From positions 2,605-66,604 of the forward strand of contig CAXSDP010000014.1 in assembly GCA_964235705.1 (NCBI GenBank): a DNA stretch of 64,000 nt, in the 5' to 3' direction. Below the pieces are notes generated by a model that was given only the letters and a program-made list of their open reading frames with translations, had not been told where the DNA came from and did no database searches. Shown in pieces: positions 1 to 60,785 of this stretch. The stretch comes from an uncultured Beijerinckiaceae bacterium (GTDB lineage: Bacteria; Pseudomonadota; Alphaproteobacteria; Rhizobiales; Beijerinckiaceae). A program made the position numbers and the translations under genes. The stretch's first letter is position 1; the number at the start of each line of letters is the position of its first letter.

Positions 1-2
1 AC

Positions 3-836
3 CGTGACAACCTCGCGCTCATCAAGCGCACGATCGACGACCTGACACGACGAACGAACCCCGCCCCGCTGGAGATCGTCATCGTCGATAACGGGACGAC
101 GGATCCGGAGGTCCTGGACTTCTACCGGATGATCGAGGGCACCGGCGTCCGCGTCGACATCATGCCGGAGGCCTTCAACTTCGCGCGGATGTGCAATCGG
201 GGGGCGAGCCTGGCGACCGGCGACGCGATCCTGTTCTTCAACAACGATATCGAGGTCATCGAACCGGGCTGGCTCGGCGAGATGGTCGAGTGCCTGTCCT
301 TCGACGACGTGGGGATCGTCGGCGCCAAGCTCACCTACCCGGACGGCAAGGTCCAGCATAACGGTGTCATCGTCGGGCTCGGCCAGGCCGCCGGGCACTG
401 GTACGTGGACGCGGAGGGCGACGATCCCGGGCCGATGGGCCGCTTCGCCATCCGCCAAACGTTGAGCGCCGTGACAGGCGCCTGCATGCTGGTCACCAAG
501 CGGTGCTTCGAGGCCCTTGGCGGTTTCGACGAGGAGCGTTTCGCCATCGCCTACAACGACATCGACCTGTGCCTACGCGGCCGGAACGCCGGGTTCCGCA
601 CCGTTTGGACACCCTTCGCCCACCTCGTCCACCACGAGTCCGCGACGCGTGGCAGCGACGAGGTCGGTCCGCAGAACGCGCGTTTCCGCGCGGAGTTCGG
701 CCGGCTCCAGGAGCGACACGGCACGGCGGATTTCATCGACGACGCCTACAGTCCCTTCTACGATCGTCGCAATTCCAGTCCCTTCATCGTCATTCCCGAA
801 ACCCTGCCCGCCTTGCGGCCGAACCGTTTCGGCTGA
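3..836 (+). CDS. Glycosyltransferase family 2 (5'-truncated by window edge)
   Basis: Frame open from nt 3 (RDNLALIKRT...EIVIVDNG); FNFARMCNRGA, FFNND, VTGACMLV, YNDIDLCLR and HHESATRG are typical GT2 motifs. Confidence 0.9.
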   Translation, partial: RDNLALIKRTIDDLTRRTNPAPLEIVIVDNGTTDPEVLDFYRMIEGTGVRVDIMPEAFNFARMCNRGASLATGDAILFFNNDIEVIEPGWLGEMVECLSFDDVGIVGAKLTYPDGKVQHNGVIVGLGQAAGHWYVDAEGDDPGPMGRFAIRQTLSAVTGACMLVTKRCFEALGGFDEERFAIAYNDIDLCLRGRNAGFRTVWTPFAHLVHHESATRGSDEVGPQNARFRAEFGRLQERHGTADFIDDAYSPFYDRRNSSPFIVIPETLPALRPNRFG

Positions 837-1101
837 GGGATGCGATCATCGGCGGCGTATGAGCTCGACCGATCCACTGGCACCCCTGGCCTTTGGTCCT
901 CGCTGGCGGAATGATGCTGGCCGCTGATGAAGACGCAGGGCCGTCGATCCTCTAGAAGGATGGCTTCGCGGCCGCCCCGGCGGGTCGTGGGACACCAGCG
1001 GCGCCGAGGAATGGGCTTCGCGAGGAAGGCAGGCCGACCTGGCCGGCGTTGGAACACTGTTGGCGTTCGCTCGCTTTCCTTTGACGTACCGGTGAGAAGG
1101 A

Positions 1102-3669
1102 ATGGGCGTGCCAAAGGTGTCTTCAGCAACGGTCGACGTATCGGACTGCGAGCGCGAGCCGGTCCACATCCCCGGGGCGATCCAACCTTTCGGCTTCCTC
1201 ATCGCCTTCGCCTTGCCGACGTGGCGCATCGCGCACGTGTCCGCCAACGCCGCCGCCGTTTTCTCGGTCGAGGCCCCGACGCTCATGATCGAGGCGGCCA
1301 TGGAAACGGTCCTGCCGCCCAAGATCATCCACGACCTCCGCAACGTCTTCCAAGCCGCCATGATCTCGGGCTTGGCCGAACGCTTGAGCAACGTGCCGGT
1401 GGGAACGCGGCAGGAAGCGTACGACATCATGATCCACGCGTCCGGTCAGCTGGCGATCGCCGAGTTCATCCCGTGCGCGGGCGCCGATACGACGCTGGGG
1501 GACGCGACCGCGCTCGTGAAGACGGTGATCGACCGGCTGCGCCGCACCACCAGCTTCAAGACGTTCCTGATCTCGGCCGCCCGCCAGATCCGCGCCGTCA
1601 CCGGCTACGATCGCGTGATGCTCTACAAGTTCCTCGAGGACGACACCGGCGTCGTCGTCGCCGAAGCGTTGCGCGCCGGCATGCCGCCGTTCCTGAACCT
1701 CCACTACCCCGCGAGCGACATCCCGGCGCAATCTCGCGCGCTCTTCCGACGCCAATGGCTGCGCTTCATCGCGACCGTCGATTACACGCCCGTGCCGATC
1801 GTACCCGCGTTGACCGAGAAGGGCGCGCCGGTCGACCTCACCTTGTCGACGCTGCGGAGCGCCTCGCCCATCCACCTCCAATACCTACGCAACATGGGCA
1901 GTGCGGCGACCCTGACCGTCTCCATCATGCAGGGCGACCGATTGTGGGGGCTGATCGCCTGCCATCACGACACGCCGCGCCGGATTTCGGCGACGACCAG
2001 CGCCGCGATGGAGCTGCTGGCGCAGGTGCTGTCCACGCAGATCGAGGCCAAGCAGCAGCACGACGCGTTGGCCGAGATCGCCAAAGGTCGTGAGATCCAC
2101 GACCGCTTGATCGCCAGCATGGAACCCGAGGAGACGATCTTCGACAACCTGCGGCGGTTCAACACCCTGATCCAGGACATGATCCCCTGCGATGGAATCG
2201 GCATCTGGGCCAACGATCGCTTCGAGGCGGAAGGCGCCGCGCCGCCCCATGACGCGATCCCCGACCTGATCCGCTTCCTCAACGGCAAGCACGCGAACCA
2301 GGTGTTCTCGACCGACAGGCTCTCCGGGCACCTGCCGGACGCGACGCGCTACGCCCCCACCGTGAGCGGCTTGCTCGCCATTCCCTTCACGCGCGCCCCG
2401 CAGGATTTCCTGCTGCTGTTTCGTCGGGAGGTGATCCAGACCGTGAACTGGGGCGGCAACCCCAACAAGGCGGTCGAGATCAACGGCACCATCGAGATCG
2501 AGGGCGTGGGCCACCGGCTCAGCCCCCGGACCAGCTTCGCCGCGTGGAAGGAAACCGTGCGCGACCGATCCCTACCGTGGCGCGGCAGCGACTTGATCAT
2601 CGCCGAGACGTTGCGCGTTTCGCTGCTCGACGTGATCCTTCGACGCGCCAACATCATCGATCGGGAACGACGGGCCGCGCAGGAGGGGCAACTCCTCCTC
2701 GTCGCCGAGCTCAACCACCGGGTCAAGAACGTCTTGAGCGTCATTAGATCGCTCGTGCGGCAGAGCCAGCAGGGCGCGACGTCGCTGGAAGCCTTCACCA
2801 ACGACCTGCAGAATCGTATCCACGCGTTGTCCGTGGCGCACGACCAGCTGACCCAGGGGCATTGGAAAGCCGCGCCGCTGCTGACCTTGATCGAGGCGGA
2901 GGCGCAAGCTTGGACCCATGTCGAGGACGCCCGCCTGGCGCTATCCGGCCCGCCCGTCATGATCGAGGCCCGCGCCTATCAGACGCTCGCCCTCGTGCTT
3001 CACGAGATGATGACGAACGCCGCTAAATACGGCGCCTTGAGCGTGGAGGAGGGATGCCTCGCCATCACCTGGTCCCTTGAGAAAGCCGGCGACCTCGTCC
3101 TCGTCTGGGAGGAGCGCGGCGGACCACCCGTGACGCCGCCGAAACGGCGAGGATTCGGGACGATCGTCATCGAGCAGTCCATCCCCTTCGAGCTTCGGGG
3201 CGAAACGTCGGTCGAGCGTCGTCCGGAGGGTATCCGCGCCCGTTTCGTGATCCCTTACGACTTCGTGCAGAAGGGTGGCGAGGAGGTGGTGTCACGTCGA
3301 TCGCCGGTGATCGCGCCGCAGGCCGACCTGAAGGGCAAGAACCTGCTGCTGGTGGAGGACAGCATGATGATCGCCCTCGACGCGCAGACGATGCTTCAGA
3401 ACTGCGGCGCCGAGGTTGAGATCGCGGCGACGACGAGCGATGCCCGCCGCGCGCTCAAGCTGAACGTTTTCGACGCGGCGATCCTGGACGTGAACCTTTA
3501 CATCGAGACGAGCTTCGCCATCGCCGAGGACCTGCAGGACCGTGCCATCCCCTTCGTCTTCGCCACCGGTTACGGCGAAACGATCAGCCTCCCCGAGCGC
3601 TTCAAGGACGTCCACGTCATATCGAAGCCCTACGCCGAGGACACGCTCCGCGCCGCCTTGGCCGCCTGA
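1102..3669 (+). CDS. bphP: Bacteriophytochrome: PAS-GAF-PHY + HWE histidine kinase + receiver domain
   Basis: N-terminal chromophore Cys (DCEREPVHIPGAIQP), PASDIP, PIHLQYLRNMG, PRxSF (PRTSF), ELNHRVKN H-box, C-terminal REC (LLVED...LDVNL...KP). Confidence 0.93.
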   Translation: MGVPKVSSATVDVSDCEREPVHIPGAIQPFGFLIAFALPTWRIAHVSANAAAVFSVEAPTLMIEAAMETVLPPKIIHDLRNVFQAAMISGLAERLSNVPVGTRQEAYDIMIHASGQLAIAEFIPCAGADTTLGDATALVKTVIDRLRRTTSFKTFLISAARQIRAVTGYDRVMLYKFLEDDTGVVVAEALRAGMPPFLNLHYPASDIPAQSRALFRRQWLRFIATVDYTPVPIVPALTEKGAPVDLTLSTLRSASPIHLQYLRNMGSAATLTVSIMQGDRLWGLIACHHDTPRRISATTSAAMELLAQVLSTQIEAKQQHDALAEIAKGREIHDRLIASMEPEETIFDNLRRFNTLIQDMIPCDGIGIWANDRFEAEGAAPPHDAIPDLIRFLNGKHANQVFSTDRLSGHLPDATRYAPTVSGLLAIPFTRAPQDFLLLFRREVIQTVNWGGNPNKAVEINGTIEIEGVGHRLSPRTSFAAWKETVRDRSLPWRGSDLIIAETLRVSLLDVILRRANIIDRERRAAQEGQLLLVAELNHRVKNVLSVIRSLVRQSQQGATSLEAFTNDLQNRIHALSVAHDQLTQGHWKAAPLLTLIEAEAQAWTHVEDARLALSGPPVMIEARAYQTLALVLHEMMTNAAKYGALSVEEGCLAITWSLEKAGDLVLVWEERGGPPVTPPKRRGFGTIVIEQSIPFELRGETSVERRPEGIRARFVIPYDFVQKGGEEVVSRRSPVIAPQADLKGKNLLLVEDSMMIALDAQTMLQNCGAEVEIAATTSDARRALKLNVFDAAILDVNLYIETSFAIAEDLQDRAIPFVFATGYGETISLPERFKDVHVISKPYAEDTLRAALAA

Positions 3670-3780
3670 AGGATCCTTCGGCGGCTTGAGGGCCCTTGGT
3701 CCGGCTACGCCGCCGCGGATACGTCGTGGCGTCCATGGCGCGCGACATGCTAATGGCGTGACGGCGCGGGGGCGGTGGGA

Positions 3781-4107
3781 ATGGTCAAGAAGGAGTCGAA
3801 GAAGGCGGCGGCTCCGCTCAAGAAAGCGGTCGTGACCCTGACGACCACCGACATCGGCGACCATCTGGCCGCCACCTTCGAGATCCCGAAGTCCCACGCG
3901 AAGATCTATCTGAGCGAAGCCGTGGCGCTGATCGGCAAGCACTTGAAGAAGGGCAACAAGGTTCGCATCAGCGGTTTAGGCGTGTTCCAAGTCAAGAAGC
4001 GCGCCGCCCGCAAGGGAAGCAATCCGAACACGGGTGAACCGATGAAGATCAAGGCCGGCAAGCGGCTCGGCTTCACCGCGGCGCGGGACCTGAAGGCGAA
4101 ACTCTGA
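3781..4107 (+). CDS. hup: HU/IHF family DNA-binding protein
   Basis: KVRISGLGVFQVKKRAARKGSNPNTGEPMKIKA signature. Confidence 0.92.
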   Translation: MVKKESKKAAAPLKKAVVTLTTTDIGDHLAATFEIPKSHAKIYLSEAVALIGKHLKKGNKVRISGLGVFQVKKRAARKGSNPNTGEPMKIKAGKRLGFTAARDLKAKL

Positions 4108-4125
4108 GGCAAGGCGTCCGCCGGT

Positions 4126-5451
4126 TCAGCGGACGGGTGGGCTCGGTGCGCGGGTCAGCCGTTCCGACAACTCGACCTCGCGCGGGCCCGGGCTGACCGC
4201 CAACGCGACGAGGCTGACGAGCGCGGTGCCGGCGAGGTAGATCCCCACCGGGCCGAGTCCACCCCGTTCCGCGAGCGCCTGCGCCAGCAACGGCGCGAGG
4301 CCACCGCCGATGATGCCGCCGGCGCTGAAGGCCAGCGAGGCCCCGGTGTAGCGGACCCTGGCTGGGAACAGCGTCGGGAGCCAAGCGCCGAGCGGCCCGT
4401 AAACGAGACCCATCGCGAAGAGCGCGATCGATAGGAAAAGGAACACGGTGAACAGCGAGCCGCTGCCGAGCATCGGCGGGAGCAGGAAGCCGGTGACGAC
4501 GGTGGCGAGGCAACCGACCATGAGCACGCGACGCGGGTTCGTCCGATCCGACCAGACCGCCGCCACCACCGTGCCCAACGCCATGAAGATGATCGCGGCG
4601 AGCAGGATGCCGAGGAAAACGCGGCGATCATAGTGCAAGGTCGCGGTGCCGTAGCCGAGCGCGAAGGCGGTCGCGGTGTAGAACAATGCGAAACAGGCGA
4701 CCACCGCCACCGTGCCGGCCAAGGTTTCGCGCGCGTGGTCGCGCATGACGTCGGCGATGGGCACGGCCGCCGGGGGCGCCTCCGCCATCGCTGCCGAGAA
4801 CGCGGAGGTTTCGCTCAGGCGCAGCCGTACCCAGAGGCCGACGCCGACCAGCAACGAGCTCGCGAGGAACGGCAGGCGCCAGCCCCAGTCCTCGAATTGG
4901 GCGGGCGTCAGCGCGAGACTGAGCAGGATGAAGAGGCCGTTGGCGGCGATGAAGCCGACGGGGGCGCCGAGTTGCGGGAACATGCCATAGCGCGCCTCCC
5001 AGCCCGGCGGCGCGTTCTCGACCGCGAGCAGCGCCGCGCCGCCCCATTCCCCACCGAGGCCCAGACCCTGACCGAACCGGAGGACGCACAGCAGCAGCGG
5101 CGCGCACCAGCCGATGGACCGATAGGTCGGTAGCAACCCGATCAGCAGGGTGGACGCCCCCATCAGGAGCAGCGAGGCGACGAGCGTCGACTTGCGACCG
5201 ACGCGATCGCCGAAGTGGCCGAACGCCACCGATCCCAGTGGCCGCGCGAGGAAGGCGAGGCCGAAGATGCCGTATGACGCGAGCAACTGGGCCGACGGTG
5301 AGGATCGGGGGAAGAACAAGGGTCCGAAGACGAGCGAGGCCGCCGTCGCGTAGACATAGAAGTCATAGAACTCGATGGTGGTCCCGACGAGGCTCGCGGC
5401 GAGGACGCGCGCGACGGGCGTACGACCCGCGTTGGAAGGCTGCGTGTTCAT
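4126..5451 (-). CDS. MFS transporter, metabolite:H+ symporter (MHS) family
   Basis: GTTIEFYDFYVY, GDRVGRK, QGLGLGGEWGGA motifs; about 12 hydrophobic segments; start moved to MNTQP at 5451. Confidence 0.92.
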   Translation of the reverse strand: MNTQPSNAGRTPVARVLAASLVGTTIEFYDFYVYATAASLVFGPLFFPRSSPSAQLLASYGIFGLAFLARPLGSVAFGHFGDRVGRKSTLVASLLLMGASTLLIGLLPTYRSIGWCAPLLLCVLRFGQGLGLGGEWGGAALLAVENAPPGWEARYGMFPQLGAPVGFIAANGLFILLSLALTPAQFEDWGWRLPFLASSLLVGVGLWVRLRLSETSAFSAAMAEAPPAAVPIADVMRDHARETLAGTVAVVACFALFYTATAFALGYGTATLHYDRRVFLGILLAAIIFMALGTVVAAVWSDRTNPRRVLMVGCLATVVTGFLLPPMLGSGSLFTVFLFLSIALFAMGLVYGPLGAWLPTLFPARVRYTGASLAFSAGGIIGGGLAPLLAQALAERGGLGPVGIYLAGTALVSLVALAVSPGPREVELSERLTRAPSPPVR

Positions 5452-5874
5452 GGTCAGCGGGTCGATCCACGTGGTGTTCGCGACATGGCAAGGCGCGCGG
5501 ACGAGCGTGTCGGGCGCTCGAACGCGATCGGGGCAAGGCGTACGCGACGCCGGGGCATGCGGACCGGGCGCCGCGCAAGTTTGGCTTGCACGCGGGAACA
5601 ACACGCCCTAAACGTTTGATGACAAACCAAACCCTTGATCACGGGGTGTTTGTTTCAGTGCGAAGCATAGGCCCGACGCGCGACAGGTCAAGCTGGTCAC
5701 AGGAGTGGGGTCGTCAGCATGGTGGAACAGGCCCGCGAGGCATCGGTGAAGGCATCCAAGACCAGCGCGCTGACGAAGGTCGGAACGACTTGGAACGCTT
5801 CCGACAAGGCCGCGCACGTTCGCGAATCCGAGCCCTCGCCGGACGCATCGAAGGGGCCGTGCGACGAGGAAGCC

Positions 5875-6378
5875 ATGGTGGCGAAGCGGACCGCCCTGGG
5901 AACGCGCAGGAGGGACGCCGTCGCGCCGAAACCGGAGGGCAACGGTGACGTACAGTTAGGCTTCCTGTCCGATTGCGTCGGGTTCCACCTTCGCCTGGCG
6001 CAGGACGCCTCCTATCGTACGTTCGCCAAGCACCACGACAAGGATCTCATCAAACCCGGCCGCTACCCGGCGCTAGCGATCATCCACCTCAACCCGGGGA
6101 TCTCGCAAAGCGCGCTCGGCCGTGCCATCGCCCGCGACAAGTCAACCGTCAGCCCGCTCATCAAGGACCTTCAAAAGAACGGCTTCATCAACCGCAAGGC
6201 CTCGACGCAAGATCGGCGCAGCGTGACCCTCGTCCTCACCAAGAAGGGCGAACGGACGCTCGACGAGTTGCGCGTACGCGCGACGGAGCACGAGGGGGAA
6301 CTCGATCGGCTGGTCGGCCCATCCAAGGCCCGGTTGATGTCCCTCCTCGGCAAGATCATCGCCAGCATGTCGCCTTGA
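5875..6378 (+). CDS. MarR family transcriptional regulator
   Basis: PGISQSALGRAIARDKSTVS...DRRSVTLVLTKKG winged helix; GAGGA RBS before ATG 5875. Confidence 0.9.
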   Translation: MVAKRTALGTRRRDAVAPKPEGNGDVQLGFLSDCVGFHLRLAQDASYRTFAKHHDKDLIKPGRYPALAIIHLNPGISQSALGRAIARDKSTVSPLIKDLQKNGFINRKASTQDRRSVTLVLTKKGERTLDELRVRATEHEGELDRLVGPSKARLMSLLGKIIASMSP

Positions 6379-6429
6379 ACCGACCGTGCGATTGCCAATG
6401 CCGCCCCGCACGGATTAAACGCCCAATGC

Positions 6430-17481: not shown

Positions 17482-18270
17482 GTGCTTCACCGCCATAAGC
17501 CCATGACGCGAGCCACGCCTCCTTACAAAACTTTCGCCGAACGTCGTCGCGAATCGGAATGCTACGCGAGCGCCCTCTCGACGATCGACCGCCTGACCGA
17601 CATCACCGAACTCGACGGATTGGCGGACATGCTGAGTTCCGCCTTCTCCACCTATGGCGTGGACCACTTCATCGTCGCTGGCCTGCCGAACCCGACCGAG
17701 CGCTTCGAGAAGATGGTCATGCTCAAGCATTGGTCGGCGGAGTGGTTCGATGTCTACATGAAGGAGGATTACGTGATCGACGATCCCGTCGTCCGCCTAT
17801 GCCGTTCATCGGTGACGCCTTTCGAATGGACCGAGGCGCCCTTCGATGCCGAGCGCGAGCCGCGCGCCCTGGAGCTGATGAACAGGGCGCGCGACTTCGG
17901 CCTTCGACGTGGTTTCAGCATCCCCGTTCACAGCATGAACGGCCTCGACGCTTGTTTCTCCGTCAGCGGGGCCAAACCCGAGTTCGACAGCGGCGCAAGG
18001 GCGGCGCTGCACCTCGTCGCGGTATATGCCTTCGAGAAGGTTCGCCGGCTGTCGCTTCCCAAGCCACGGCCGAGTCCCCTGACCGCGAGGGAGACGGAGG
18101 TGCTGACCTGGATCGCCTCCGGCAAGAGCCACGGGGACATCGCGGAGATCCTGGGCATCACGGAGCGGACCGTGACGGCGCACGCGGTCAGGGCCACCGA
18201 CAAGCTTGGGGCCTCGAACCGAACCCATGCCTGCGTACGCGCCATGCTCGCGAACTATATCTCCGTCTGA
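17482..18270 (+). CDS. luxR: LuxR-family AHL receptor (autoinducer-binding domain + HTH)
   Basis: W..W...Y......DDPV, PFEW and RGFSIP ligand-pocket residues; LTARETEVLTWIASGKS...ERTV HTH; start 17482 or 17503. Confidence 0.95.
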   Translation: MLHRHKPMTRATPPYKTFAERRRESECYASALSTIDRLTDITELDGLADMLSSAFSTYGVDHFIVAGLPNPTERFEKMVMLKHWSAEWFDVYMKEDYVIDDPVVRLCRSSVTPFEWTEAPFDAEREPRALELMNRARDFGLRRGFSIPVHSMNGLDACFSVSGAKPEFDSGARAALHLVAVYAFEKVRRLSLPKPRPSPLTARETEVLTWIASGKSHGDIAEILGITERTVTAHAVRATDKLGASNRTHACVRAMLANYISV

Positions 18271-18340
18271 CCTTCAGGTTTCTACAATACCGGCCTAGGA
18301 CGTTTCTCCGCATGCTGTTGCTTCCGTGGGGGAAGCAGCC

Positions 18341-18979
18341 ATGTCAGAGATCCACGTCGTCACCCAGGCGAACCGGACGGACTACGATCAAATTTTGGTG
18401 GACTACCACCGTAAACGGCATGACATCTTCGTTGGCGAGCGGAGGTGGATGTCCCTTTTCAGCCCTGATGGCCTGGAAGTCGACGAGTATGACGATGAGC
18501 ACAGTATCTACTTGCTCGCGCTTGAGGGTGATACTGTCGTCGGGGGGCAACGACTCTATCCCACCCTGCGACCGCACATGATCAGCCAGACGTTCGCCCA
18601 CCTCGTCGAGGATCGCGTGCCGGTCAGCTCCCGCATCCTGGAATGGACGCGCTACTTCATCATCAAGGAGCGACGGCGGACGCAGACGGATGGGCGTTTG
18701 ATGGCATCCGTCCAGCAATACTGCCTCGAGGAAGGGATCACCGACCTCACCGCGGTAGGCGAGATGTGGTGGCTGCCGCGTTGGCAGCAGTATGGCTTCG
18801 ACGTGCGACCGCTCGGCCTGCCGCAGATGGTCGATGGCCAGCCTGCGCTCGCCGTCCGCATCGAGATCTCGGAGGAGAGCTACGAAAGCGTGCTGAGCGT
18901 CGCCGGGTTGAAGCACCAGGATCTCACTCGGTGCCGTTCGGGCGCGAGCAATGGCGGGCGTCTGGCCAATGCCGCATGA
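18341..18979 (+). CDS. luxI: Acyl-homoserine lactone synthase, BjaI/RpaI-like
   Basis: RHDIFVGERRW, DGLEVDEYDD, GGQRLYPT, LEWTRYF, EMWWLPR, PLGLP. Confidence 0.95.
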   Translation: MSEIHVVTQANRTDYDQILVDYHRKRHDIFVGERRWMSLFSPDGLEVDEYDDEHSIYLLALEGDTVVGGQRLYPTLRPHMISQTFAHLVEDRVPVSSRILEWTRYFIIKERRRTQTDGRLMASVQQYCLEEGITDLTAVGEMWWLPRWQQYGFDVRPLGLPQMVDGQPALAVRIEISEESYESVLSVAGLKHQDLTRCRSGASNGGRLANAA

Positions 18980-19184
18980 GTTACCACGATCGCGGATCGT
19001 GGAAAGTTTGGCGGCGTCCGTCGCCTCGTTCGCCGAGTGCCAATCCGCCGAAGGCTTGGCCAGCCTGATCGGCTTCTTCCACCTGGCCGTTCCTCACCGA
19101 GAGGCCAGGATCGAACTCATTGTCAGTCCTTCGGGGCGCCTGGAGCTCAGCATCGACCTTCATCCGGTGGAAGAGGGCGGTTAG
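18969..19184 (+). CDS. Small (71 aa) hypothetical protein overlapping the luxI stop
   Basis: 11-nt overlap with luxI; protein-like; an alternative 30-aa ORF starts at 18976. Confidence 0.55.
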   Translation: MPHELPRSRIVESLAASVASFAECQSAEGLASLIGFFHLAVPHREARIELIVSPSGRLELSIDLHPVEEGG

Positions 19185-19255
19185 GAGTCGCACGCTGGCG
19201 GTTTGGTCGCGGGACGCATACTGTTGCTGAAGCGAGGCTTCAGTGGGCAAGTGCA

Positions 19256-19663
19256 TTGGATTCTTTCGACGAGCTTGTTGGCACCAAGATCCGTTTCAGA
19301 CGCAACGAGTTGGGGCAGTCTCAAGAACAGCTCGCGAAAGCAAGCGGCGTCACGTTCCAGCAGGTGCAGAAGTACGAGAAAGGCAAAAATCGCGTCGCAG
19401 CCAGCCGCTTGGTGCGTATCGCCGAAGCGCTTCAGGTCCAACCGACCTACTTCTTCCCTCTGGATCCCAAGTTCGGTGCGGCGCCCTGTGGCGAACTTGA
19501 ACTTATGCGAGAAAGCTTCGGAAGCGAGGACAGACGGAAGCTTAACCGCGCCTTTGGCCAGATCGAAGCTCCCGCGTTAAGGAAGGCGATCGTCCGCTTG
19601 GTGGAAGCGCTCGCCGAGGGAAGGACAGGTTACGCCGTGGAGGAAGAAGGCGAGGGCGGCTGA
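19256..19663 (+). CDS. XRE/Cro-CI family HTH regulator
   Basis: VGTKIRFRRNELGQSQEQLAKASGVTFQQVQKYEKGKNRVAASRL; TTG start uncertain. Confidence 0.9.
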   Translation: MDSFDELVGTKIRFRRNELGQSQEQLAKASGVTFQQVQKYEKGKNRVAASRLVRIAEALQVQPTYFFPLDPKFGAAPCGELELMRESFGSEDRRKLNRAFGQIEAPALRKAIVRLVEALAEGRTGYAVEEEGEGG

Positions 19664-19981: not shown

Positions 19982-20809
19982 TCAGGAGCCCGTACCTTGA
20001 ATGACACCCCCTCCATACTTGTTTACAACAAGAAAAAGGCTATTATAGAGCCGCGGCGGAAGATCGGACATCAGATTAATTTTAAAGTCACCTTTTTTAT
20101 TGCGCTCAGTAATGACAGCGATCTTTAGGTCATTGATCTCGTCAATTAAATTCTCCTCTGCCTTTTCGCTATGAGGTACAAAGAACGATACATAGTTCGC
20201 AAATCTTTCGACATCTAAGCGGTCTCTACGTATCGGAGCTGCGAGAGATTGCATGATATTTTTCATTTCCTTCAGCTCGGAAAGCACAAAGTCTTGACTT
20301 GAAACTTCTTGCTCATCGAGCTTGGCAATTTTGAATGTTCCAAACTGTTTGAGAAAGGGCGAGTAATCCGCCTCTTTTGCCGCCTTCATAGTGGCAAGTA
20401 TCTTGGAGCGGAGCGTTTCTTTAAACTTGATAATATCCGCAAAACGCAGATCTTTGGGATAGGCAATGTGTTCTACTAATCCTGTATCAAAGCTATATGG
20501 CGTCACTTCATCCTTGATTATAACTACAGGCTTGTCGAATGCCATTCTCATTCCCAACTCGAACATGACATTGGGATTACGCGAGCTGACGTCGCATACA
20601 ATCATTGGGCAATTACTTATATTCTGCACGATCGTTTTGTGAATAGTCTTAATTTCATCAGCTATGCTAACGACTGTAGCATCCATATTTGCCATCTTGA
20701 TGGCATCCTGTACTATCTCCCTCACGTCAAGCCAATGAGAAGCAGAGTATCCTTCAACAGGACTGATTGGCATTATTATACCGCAGATCTGATTGTCTCT
20801 TTCGGTCAA
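19982..20809 (-). CDS. AT-rich protein with NDT/TIR-like N-terminal domain
   Basis: CGIIMPIS...VCDVSSRNPNVMFELGMRMAFDKPVVIIKD; about 37% GC at 20041-20100 (hand count); TTG start after GGGGG. Confidence 0.75.
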   Translation of the reverse strand: MTERDNQICGIIMPISPVEGYSASHWLDVREIVQDAIKMANMDATVVSIADEIKTIHKTIVQNISNCPMIVCDVSSRNPNVMFELGMRMAFDKPVVIIKDEVTPYSFDTGLVEHIAYPKDLRFADIIKFKETLRSKILATMKAAKEADYSPFLKQFGTFKIAKLDEQEVSSQDFVLSELKEMKNIMQSLAAPIRRDRLDVERFANYVSFFVPHSEKAEENLIDEINDLKIAVITERNKKGDFKINLMSDLPPRLYNSLFLVVNKYGGGVIQGTGS

Positions 20810-20849
20810 GGTGTGACCCCCCGTTTGGTGACCATAAATCTTTGTACTT

Positions 20850-21284
20850 CTATGCTGCTTCAACACCGATGATTAATCGCCTACCGAGAGCGGCCAGCAC
20901 GGCCATCAGCGTCGACATCTTGGTCGGATGATCGGGATCGAGGATGCGCCGCACCTCGCGCCCGTCCTTGCCGAGCCGCTCGCCGAGTTCGGCCTGGGTG
21001 ATGCCGGACTCGCGGAACGCCTCCAGCACCGCCAGCTTCGCCGCGACGTCGGCGTCGACGGAAACCATGACCTGCCCCGCCTTGGCCTTCGACGCTTTCG
21101 GCAGCGGCCGCTTCATCTCGAAGAGGGTGAGCAGCGCCACACCGAGCGCGTCGCTGCCCATCGCCCGCGCGTCAGCCTCGCCGTTGCCCTCGGTGATCGC
21201 CTCCGGCACGTCGGGGAAGGTGACCACGAGGACGCCGGGGTTTTCGCCCGGCTCGAAGATCGCTGGGTACGTGAACATGCGCAT
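20850..21284 (-). CDS. hicB: HicB antitoxin
   Basis: YPAIFEP...VVTFPDVPEAITEG...A; C-terminal HTH (SGITQAELGERLG...RRILDP). Confidence 0.93.
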   Translation of the reverse strand: MRMFTYPAIFEPGENPGVLVVTFPDVPEAITEGNGEADARAMGSDALGVALLTLFEMKRPLPKASKAKAGQVMVSVDADVAAKLAVLEAFRESGITQAELGERLGKDGREVRRILDPDHPTKMSTLMAVLAALGRRLIIGVEAA

Positions 21285-59673: not shown

Positions 59674-59893
59674 GCGCGTTCGTCTCGGCTGGCTTGAAGT
59701 CGCCGTCGGCGTCGAGGTGCACGGGCGGCCATCCGGCTCGCCGGATGTTCGCGGACCTGATGAGCCGGTTCGGCAGGCGAACGAAAAGACCGCTGAGCAG
59801 CTGGGCGACCACCACCAGCGCCCAGAACATGAGCCAGAAGGCGAGCCACCAGTGCACGGTCGCCCACGTCCAAAAGCTTGACGTCATCATCAC
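59663..59893 (-). CDS. Small Trp-rich membrane protein
   Basis: FWTWATVHWWLAFWLMFWALVVVAQLL; overlaps the recombinase stop. Confidence 0.6.
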   Translation of the reverse strand: MMMTSSFWTWATVHWWLAFWLMFWALVVVAQLLSGLFVRLPNRLIRSANIRRAGWPPVHLDADGDFKPAETNARDR

Positions 59894-60738
59894 CCCTTCA
59901 CGATGGCTTTGTGCTTGCCCCGTTTGAGGACGTGCGTTTCCGCACCCTGCCAGCGGAACAGGTACTCGACGGCACCGCGGTACTTCGGGTTATCGAGGAT
60001 GTAGCCGACCTGGCTTGGGCGCCATTGGCCGCCGCGCTTGGTCGGCACCTTCTCGGCGTTCAGCGCGTCGGCGATCGCCTGAAGCGTCGCGCCGCCCTTC
60101 CGCAACTCGAAGATGCTTTCGACTGTTTTCGAGTGACGCTCGTCGATGACGAGCCCACCCTCGCGGTCGCGGCTGTAGCCAAGCGGCGCCGAGCCGCCGG
60201 CAAATCCACCCTTCGTTGCTTTCTCGCGGCGCCCACCGTGCGTCCGCTCGGTGATAGCTTGTCGTTCCTGCTCGGCCATGCCGGCGAGCACCGCGAAAAC
60301 CGTGCGCCCCATCGGGGTCGCCGTGTCGATCGGCTCCGAGACGGAGCGGATGACGACGCCATAGCGCTCGGACAGGTCGTTCACCGCCGTCACGGCGTAG
60401 ACGATCTGGCGCGCGAGGCGATCGAACTTGTAGACCAGGAGCACCGCGAAGGCCTGCGCCTCCGCGAGTTCGAGGATGCGCGCGAACCCGGGGCGTTCCG
60501 CCGGCTTGGTCGCGCCGGACACGCCGGGGTCGGCGATCACGTCGACGAGCTTATAGCCCTGCGACTCCGCGAAGGCGCGGACCGCGCGCTGCTGGCTCTC
60601 GAGGCCCTGGCCGTGTTGCGCCTGCTCTTCCGTCGAGACCCGGATGTAGGCTGCGGCCTTGGTGGCGATCTCGGCCTTGGCCTCGCTGGCCTCGCCGCTC
60701 CGCTTTTTCAGCCGCGCGACGCGCTTTGAAGCGAGCAT
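59890..60738 (-). CDS. Serine recombinase (resolvase catalytic + recombinase DNA-binding domain, no zinc ribbon)
   Basis: AYIRVSTEEQ; DPGVSG...RPG; KFDRLAR; AEQERQAITERT; APLGY...ILDNPKYRG. Confidence 0.93.
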   Translation of the reverse strand: MLASKRVARLKKRSGEASEAKAEIATKAAAYIRVSTEEQAQHGQGLESQQRAVRAFAESQGYKLVDVIADPGVSGATKPAERPGFARILELAEAQAFAVLLVYKFDRLARQIVYAVTAVNDLSERYGVVIRSVSEPIDTATPMGRTVFAVLAGMAEQERQAITERTHGGRREKATKGGFAGGSAPLGYSRDREGGLVIDERHSKTVESIFELRKGGATLQAIADALNAEKVPTKRGGQWRPSQVGYILDNPKYRGAVEYLFRWQGAETHVLKRGKHKAIVKG

Positions 60739-60785
60739 CGCGCAACCCATTGTTATTGTTTGTTTTTCTTACTTAGACGCTGTTC

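Follow-up and report, generated by a model that had tools for sequence, protein, structure and literature searches.

We analysed a 64,000-nucleotide stretch of DNA (the window) from an uncultured Beijerinckiaceae bacterium (contig CAXSDP010000014.1 of assembly GCA_964235705.1), in which a pair of quorum-sensing genes, luxR and luxI, is followed on the same strand by a gene for a small protein, here called S, and a gene for a regulator of the XRE family. An original prediction made from this sequence had pointed to a 71-amino-acid open reading frame (ORF) overlapping the luxI stop codon, with an XRE gene behind it, and both genes had been placed correctly. The features of the locus are as follows.

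17503..18270, plus strand: luxR, 255 amino acids from the ATG common to the homologues; Pfam Autoind_bind (1e-32) and GerE (1.5e-16)
18270..18289, plus strand: lux-box-like element ACCTTCAGGTTTCTACAATA, directly 3' of the luxR stop codon and 52 nt 5' of the luxI ATG
18341..18979, plus strand: luxI, acyl-homoserine-lactone (AHL) synthase, 212 amino acids; Pfam Autoind_synth (1.9e-19)
18969..19184, plus strand: small ORF S, 71 amino acids, acidic; its ATG lies inside luxI, with an 11-nt overlap with the luxI stop
19185..19255, plus strand: spacer between S and XRE, 71 nt here and 34–120 nt in homologues; no terminator found
19256..19663, plus strand: XRE regulator, 135 amino acids, TTG start; Pfam HTH_3 (1.4e-14)

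The luxR start codon, ATG 17503, was chosen by alignment with seven homologous loci. By their domains (AHL-binding and GerE in LuxR, autoinducer synthase in LuxI) and by the lux-type box before luxI, the two genes form a canonical quorum-sensing pair. The luxI ATG has the Shine-Dalgarno sequence GGGGGAAG upstream, and its stop codon occupies 18977–18979. A longer, 208-amino-acid version of XRE starting at GTG 19037 was rejected, as GC at the third codon position is 0.44 in the upstream part, which is not coding-like, and TTG 19256 is invariant instead.

Conservation and mobility of the four-gene cassette

Searching 1.84 billion representative proteins with phmmer yielded six true relatives of S, 68–82 amino acids long and 41–57% identical. 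A seventh homologue was added by a profile search, the family of seven spanning 68–83 amino acids. The entry at the top of the phmmer list, a repeat protein of 1279 amino acids (P0122), was discarded as a spurious repeat match. All seven homologues are found in the order luxR-luxI-S-XRE with an identical 11-nt overlap of luxI and S (ATGCCGCnTGA/TAG/TAA), and the XRE gene follows 34–120 nt past S, the shortest spacing of 34 nt occurring in loci L003 and L008. Judging from these loci, the four-gene arrangement is far beyond chance.

The surroundings of the cassette differ in every locus, and none of the flanking proteins of the window recurs in the other seven. L003 and L006 have large serine recombinases next to the cassette, L004 has genes for Fic and flagellin, L005 an ABC transporter plus an amidase, and L008 an IS1595 transposase together with a HerA/PAPS-reductase/methylase block. 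In the alignment of all eight loci homology runs from about 100 nt upstream of luxR to the XRE stop codon. The differing flanks together with these limits indicate that the cassette moves as a piece of about 2.3 kb, and the claim that the four genes form a unit was thereby borne out, with order and overlap the same in 7/7 homologues. The cassette is apparently rare: no further relatives of S were found by pattern scans of IMG/VR, GTDB representative genomes and JGI metagenomes, and tblastn of S against plasmids gave no match.

Mean identity across the cassette loci amounts to 70% for LuxR, 67% for LuxI, 43% for S and 46% for XRE; S and XRE thus diverge similarly fast, and faster than LuxR and LuxI. 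The LuxI of the window is 63–80% identical to its cassette homologues and 54–61% to LuxI proteins of Microvirga. Frameshifts were seen in luxR of L007 and in both luxR and luxI of L006, with S and XRE intact in both loci. They could reflect sequencing error or the onset of decay; L006 at least is a long-read contig of 1x coverage.

We also assessed the coding status of S. GC content at codon positions 1/2/3 is 0.66/0.47/0.74, close to the 0.65/0.41/0.78 of luxI, and luxR has a similar profile. The S frame is open in 8/8 sequences, the proportion of non-synonymous differences (pN) is lower than that of synonymous differences (pS) in 28/28 pairs, and the median ratio of non-synonymous to synonymous substitution rates (dN/dS) is 0.43. 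S is therefore a real gene under purifying selection in the 71-amino-acid frame. A rival frame of 30 amino acids, joined to luxI by an ATGA overlap, has codon-position values of 0.55/0.74/0.58, a non-coding profile that reverses that of S. The original prediction had proposed conservation as the check between the two frames, and this check came out for the longer one: the ATG of the 30-amino-acid frame is unique to the window, the other loci reading CCTGA, CGTAG, CATAG or CCTAA at this place. A hairpin is predicted that spans the start codon of S together with the stop of luxI (18971–19015; 21-nt imperfect inverted repeat, −35.9 kcal/mol, z = −2.6). As a conserved RNA element it was rejected, since it is not kept in the seven homologous loci and no consensus structure was obtained.

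The small protein S and its XRE neighbour

A common motif of the S family, SFAxxQSxExLAxLxGFFHLA, precedes a beta-hairpin segment. The AlphaFold2 (AF2) model of S, built from an alignment of 30 sequences, reached a predicted local distance difference test score (pLDDT) of 85 and shows a helix-helix-beta-hairpin arrangement, with predicted helices at residues 7–23 and 27–39 and hairpin strands at 46–52 and 58–64. S carries a net charge of −5, and all 26 family members examined are acidic (range −1 to −7). It gave no match at E <= 0.01 in Pfam/NCBIfam and none in PHROG or PADLOC. No sequence match was found in the PDB, and no significant fold match in the PDB (best E 0.98, template-modelling score TM <= 0.35) or in BFVD. 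The family is absent from all domain libraries searched, and our literature search, which included a 2026 preprint on Microvirga AHL synthases, found no mention of it.

The XRE protein is 43–53% identical over about 90% of its length to many XRE proteins of 130–155 amino acids from Rhizobium, Aureimonas and Agrobacterium. Its hallmarks are the helix GVTFQQVQKYEKGxNR and a conserved C-terminal segment, LxxAFxxIxxxxxRKxxxxLVExLA. AF2 modelled a confident five-helix helix-turn-helix (HTH) domain, a disordered linker at residues 74–85 and three C-terminal helices; the HTH half is basic. Full-length fold matches include SinR of the SinR/SinI complex (1b0n_A), DdrO and Stl, all of them XRE repressors that are switched off by a partner protein or a protease. 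SinR in particular is comparable to the cassette regulator, being an XRE repressor that combines an HTH with a C-terminal helical domain for oligomerisation; a small partner inactivates it, as proposed here for XRE. The partners differ, SinI being a helical mimic of the SinR C-terminal domain and S a predicted helix-helix-beta-hairpin, and the SinI-SinR system has no link to AHL.

Phage proteins were also matched by XRE, namely the regulator of Sinorhizobium phage PBC5 (50%), CbK-like Caulobacter phages (64% over the HTH), Agrobacterium phage Atu_ph08 and Brevundimonas jumbo phages. Phage homologues have been given for CdxA, the Caulobacter orthologue of PraR/PhrR (PMC10688885), and our matches overlap with that set. 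Judged by its HTH_3 domain and conserved C-terminal helical domain, XRE is a regulator of the PraR/PhrR/CdxA kind.

Two systems with a small protein encoded behind an AHL synthase gene have been described that act on such a regulator. CinR of Rhizobium leguminosarum bv. viciae induces cinIS, the 67-amino-acid CinS binds PraR and stops its DNA binding, and the genes repressed by PraR include rhiR and raiR, both of luxR type, and genes for attachment (PMC4149787, citing Edwards 2009 and Frederix 2011; PMC3356288). CinS is a small acidic protein encoded directly behind the synthase gene and co-transcribed with it, and size, position and XRE family match the S cassette (PMC4149787). The difference is that praR is an unlinked conserved chromosomal gene, whereas here a dedicated XRE paralogue is part of the cassette; moreover, the present cassette is mobile and located in a prophage, and its XRE is possibly co-induced with S.

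In Methylobacterium fujisawaense DSM5686 the 59-amino-acid MmaP is encoded behind mmaI, co-transcribed with it, activated by quorum sensing and pulled down with PraR, and the route from MmaR-MmaI-MmaP to PraR controls swarming (PMC10790750). This system is close to ours in its host, a relative among the Methylobacteriaceae, and in the small gene behind a luxI-type gene; it differs in that praR lies apart from the quorum-sensing genes, beside metK and a tRNA methyltransferase gene, and in that MmaP is shorter than S (PMC10790750). The original prediction had mentioned a similar luxR-luxI-small protein-regulator layout from Methylobacterium that is linked to swarming. Such a system indeed exists, but this layout does not hold for it, as the regulator gene lies elsewhere. 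In our scan for LuxI relatives the motifs of the present LuxI clade did not pick up MmaI. Since the six true relatives obtained from the 1.84 billion representatives all lie in cassettes, S would resemble CinS or MmaP only very remotely at best. S appears to represent a third, apparently new small-protein family for this route.

Joint occurrence in Microvirga- and Methylobacterium-type loci

A scan for relatives of LuxI detected 33 loci at 39–61% identity. Most belong to Microvirga, the remaining ones to Methylobacterium iners and M. hispanicum and to metagenome-assembled genomes (MAGs) of Lichenihabitans, Beijerinckiaceae and other Hyphomicrobiales. In about 25 of the 33 an ORF of about 82 amino acids begins 14 nt before the luxI stop and contains the motif RLRLLAFMHLVExPxTMKATLExxPSGxxRLTLDT; aligned with the cassette S family by hhalign, these ORFs reached 95.6% probability (E 1.3e-8, 59 columns). 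A relative of the cassette XRE (hidden Markov model E ~1e-35) is present in 22 of these approximately 25 loci, located upstream of luxR on the opposite strand. Both S and XRE are absent in 7/33 loci, one locus has S with neither luxR nor XRE detectable, and two loci are truncated at the end of their contig. Neither gene accompanies the related luxRI pairs of M. hispanicum and of the M. extorquens AM1 megaplasmid.

The association of S and XRE with luxRI has thus outlasted a rearrangement between two gene orders, and the two genes are kept or lost together. We regard this joint retention and loss as the strongest comparative argument that the two may work together, although the observations are not phylogenetically independent, because most loci come from one genus. 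In 8/8 cassette loci XRE starts with TTG, and in the Microvirga type the start codon is TTG in 13, GTG in 6 and ATG in 2 loci (TTG or GTG in 19/21). A weak start codon is, across these alignments, a conserved feature of this regulator and would be expected to result in a low level of XRE relative to S.

The two gene orders also bear on a reading of S and XRE as a toxin-antitoxin or defence pair that merely rides beside luxRI among accessory genes. XRE-type HTH proteins are common as antitoxins, the XRE of the window gave generic HTH matches to the PADLOC models CapH and C-proteins, and the region is rich in accessory cargo (umuDC, hicAB and a gene resembling nucleoside 2-deoxyribosyltransferases and TIR proteins). 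S, however, is acidic and not toxin-like, is without matches to toxin families or PADLOC models and is found coupled to luxI in every case. In about 22 Microvirga loci S and the opposite-strand XRE have luxR and luxI between them, so that the genes are neither adjacent nor co-oriented as in a type II toxin-antitoxin pair, an arrangement incompatible with a bicistronic operon of this kind. We consider this reading highly improbable.

The tight overlap of luxI and S, invariably 11 or 14 nt, would also fit a role of S as a helper of LuxI in signal synthesis or export with XRE as an unrelated neighbour. There is a precedent in Burkholderia, where BCAM1871 behind cepI shares a transcript with the gene for the AHL synthase and enhances AHL activity (PMC3356288). 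As modelled, a helix-helix-hairpin protein of 71 amino acids with no catalytic or binding motif is probably not an enzyme partner, and deletion of mmaP in M. fujisawaense left AHL levels unchanged (PMC10790750). Such a role would furthermore leave unexplained that S and a PraR-like XRE occur together in two gene orders and disappear together, and it appears improbable to us.

More weight should be given to the possibility, in our view still an unlikely one, that S is an anti-activator or modulator of LuxR like TraM, QslA or QseM. S would then exert negative feedback, and XRE would be a separate homeostatic regulator like RsaL or QseC. The coupling of S to luxI is a fitting spot for a feedback factor induced by quorum sensing, XRE and luxR of Microvirga are divergent genes with a common promoter region, as would be expected of a regulator acting on luxR, and S distances track those of LuxR and LuxI (Mantel r 0.59–0.83). 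On the other hand, the sequence and fold searches (Pfam/NCBIfam, PDB) placed S outside the TraM, QslA and QseM families and brought up no other family or fold. Joint presence and absence of S and XRE would not be required for this function, and both experimentally studied small proteins encoded behind luxI bind a PraR-type XRE.

Some Microvirga-type loci showed further peculiarities. In L011, L014, L018, L030 and other Microvirga loci an inverted repeat, ACACCTG-N22-CAGGTGT, covers the luxR Shine-Dalgarno sequence and GTG start. It is located in the intergenic region between XRE and luxR, at about 2090–2160, with back-to-back promoter-like elements for XRE and luxR upstream of it, and could act as a translational hairpin or as a second LuxR site. 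The XRE and luxR genes of Microvirga zambiensis are set apart by a 1.4-kb insertion that contains a transposase-like ORF (L028:700-2154), the remainder of the locus including the S-like ORF being intact. In two Beijerinckiaceae MAGs (L031:1039-1480 and L033:3629-4050) a response-regulator receiver gene of about 140 amino acids begins in the luxI stop region in the place of S; it probably represents an alternative output module linked to synthases of this clade.

Proposed circuit and prophage setting

The element ACCTTCAGGTTTCTACAATA is the most conserved non-coding block in the alignment of the eight loci, its core CTTCAGGTTTCTACAAT being invariant at 15/17 positions, and Microvirga loci have ACCTGTAATTTCCTACAATA in the corresponding place. 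The element resembles the lux box ACCTGTAGGATCGTACAGGT. ACCTTCAGGTTTCTACAATA is probably the LuxR operator of the luxI promoter. It is the sole match of its type in the 64-kb window, suggesting no other evident direct LuxR target in the prophage. Its position in front of luxI-S-XRE also fits the idea, raised with the original prediction, that the operon is the output of the quorum-sensing circuit. No terminator-like site was found on the plus strand between luxI and the XRE stop; together with the spacer of only 34 nt in L003 and L008 this makes co-transcription of luxI, S and XRE the simplest reading.

We propose, with a probability of roughly 55%, that LuxR with bound AHL drives luxI and S and that S binds and inactivates the linked XRE. 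AHL made by LuxI would bind LuxR, and the complex would activate the luxI promoter via the conserved lux-box-like site. S would be translated from the luxI mRNA, coupled by the 11-nt overlap, and accumulate with cell density. The acidic protein could then bind the linked PraR-like repressor and take it off its operators; XRE would be made in small amounts owing to its TTG start and weak ribosome site, which would enable S to titrate it. By analogy to PraR the likeliest targets of XRE would be the luxR and XRE promoters of the cassette itself and host genes for surface or motility functions, and the divergent position of XRE next to luxR in Microvirga suggests these two promoters as targets. 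The proposal that S is a density-induced inactivator of XRE is based on the same parts occurring in the same relative positions as in the two published systems, with the repressor itself in addition. The acidity of S in 26/26 members facing a basic HTH half of XRE is consistent with it.

Several observations weigh against this proposal. Co-transcription, binding of S to XRE, the direction of the effect and the targets were all inferred, and S has no similarity to anything described that is detectable by sequence or fold. XRE is a paralogue of PraR and not its orthologue, because it adjoins neither metK nor a tRNA methyltransferase gene, an adjacency that marks PraR orthologues (PMC10790750). 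A second XRE of this family is not present within the window; a candidate PraR orthologue on a Shinella replicon of the plasmid collection was also rejected as a paralogue not linked to metK. As part of the cassette, XRE would be co-induced with S, unlike in the wiring of CinS and PraR. S and XRE distances show a correlation that is only suggestive once the contribution of LuxI or LuxR is removed (partial Mantel r 0.29–0.50, p 0.03–0.11). No XRE operator was identified and no shared palindrome is prominent in the upstream regions of luxR or luxI. The published PraR core TTGCAA has 0 occurrences in the window, compared with about 5 that we estimate from base composition. Finally, the sequence stems from a lichen metagenome and occurs in DNA runs only.

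The cassette of the window is carried by a prophage. Positions 1–6400 contain host genes (a bacteriophytochrome kinase, an MFS transporter and a MarR regulator), followed by a prophage of myovirus type. Its early genes include DUF5131 and a HerA-like gene, and structural and lysis genes are found at 24.4–56.1 kb (terminase, portal, head-protease, sheath, tape measure, baseplate hub, tail fibre and endolysin). A serine recombinase gene is located at 59890–60750. Accessory (moron) genes, umuDC and hicAB among them, surround the cassette, whose GC content is 60–63% as compared to about 70% in the surroundings. Behind hicAB, on the minus strand at 19982–20866, lies a gene for a protein of 294 amino acids with 46% GC. 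It is possibly defence cargo, with weak matches to nucleoside 2-deoxyribosyltransferase (Pfam 1e-4), PADLOC HEC-01A (2.5e-4) and a TIR effector model (7e-3).

A more far-reaching possibility is a circuit by which the prophage itself times its decision by AHL, with XRE repressing lysis-lysogeny or superinfection genes and S as density-induced anti-repressor. If so, lysogens would sense the density of other lysogens and switch together, in an AHL-based counterpart of arbitrium or of Qtip of vibriophage VP882 with sender, receiver and output all encoded by the phage. Expression of Qtip is switched on by a phage receptor that senses an autoinducer of the host, and the protein targets the cI repressor of the phage. 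QseM, from the Mesorhizobium symbiosis island, targets TraR and FseA and is in turn controlled by QseC. In both cases, as proposed for S, a small protein of a mobile element governs a transcription factor, either as a response to quorum sensing or jointly with it. Neither has a sequence or fold relation to S that we could find, and the two, cited as known examples with the original prediction, are analogies only. The suggestion that XRE or S acts on phage genes likewise found no tie: a prophage repressor was not recognisable among the small early genes of the prophage, and the relatives are ordinary chromosomal quorum-sensing loci of Microvirga. Control of the phage is a minority reading, because the cassette also occurs in non-phage flanks, and we assign it a low probability.

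In summary, the inactivation of the linked XRE by S would belong to a known kind of system, of which three elements appear to be new: the small-protein family, the linkage of a dedicated repressor paralogue to the circuit in two gene orders, and the mobile cassette in a prophage. Previously, the evidence for a route from an AHL synthase operon via a small protein to a PraR-type repressor came from two organisms, whose two small proteins have not been reported to resemble each other. The S-type family would extend it to about 25 Microvirga and Methylobacterium species and a rare mobile four-gene cassette; the repressor gene accompanies the quorum-sensing genes in either setting. With all parts present on about 2.3 kb that can be moved as one piece, the cassette represents a compact test system, and its location in a prophage raises the question whether phages use such cassettes to change the behaviour of the host or their own. 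It is possible that the pair of small protein and repressor serves alphaproteobacterial quorum sensing in general as an output stage.

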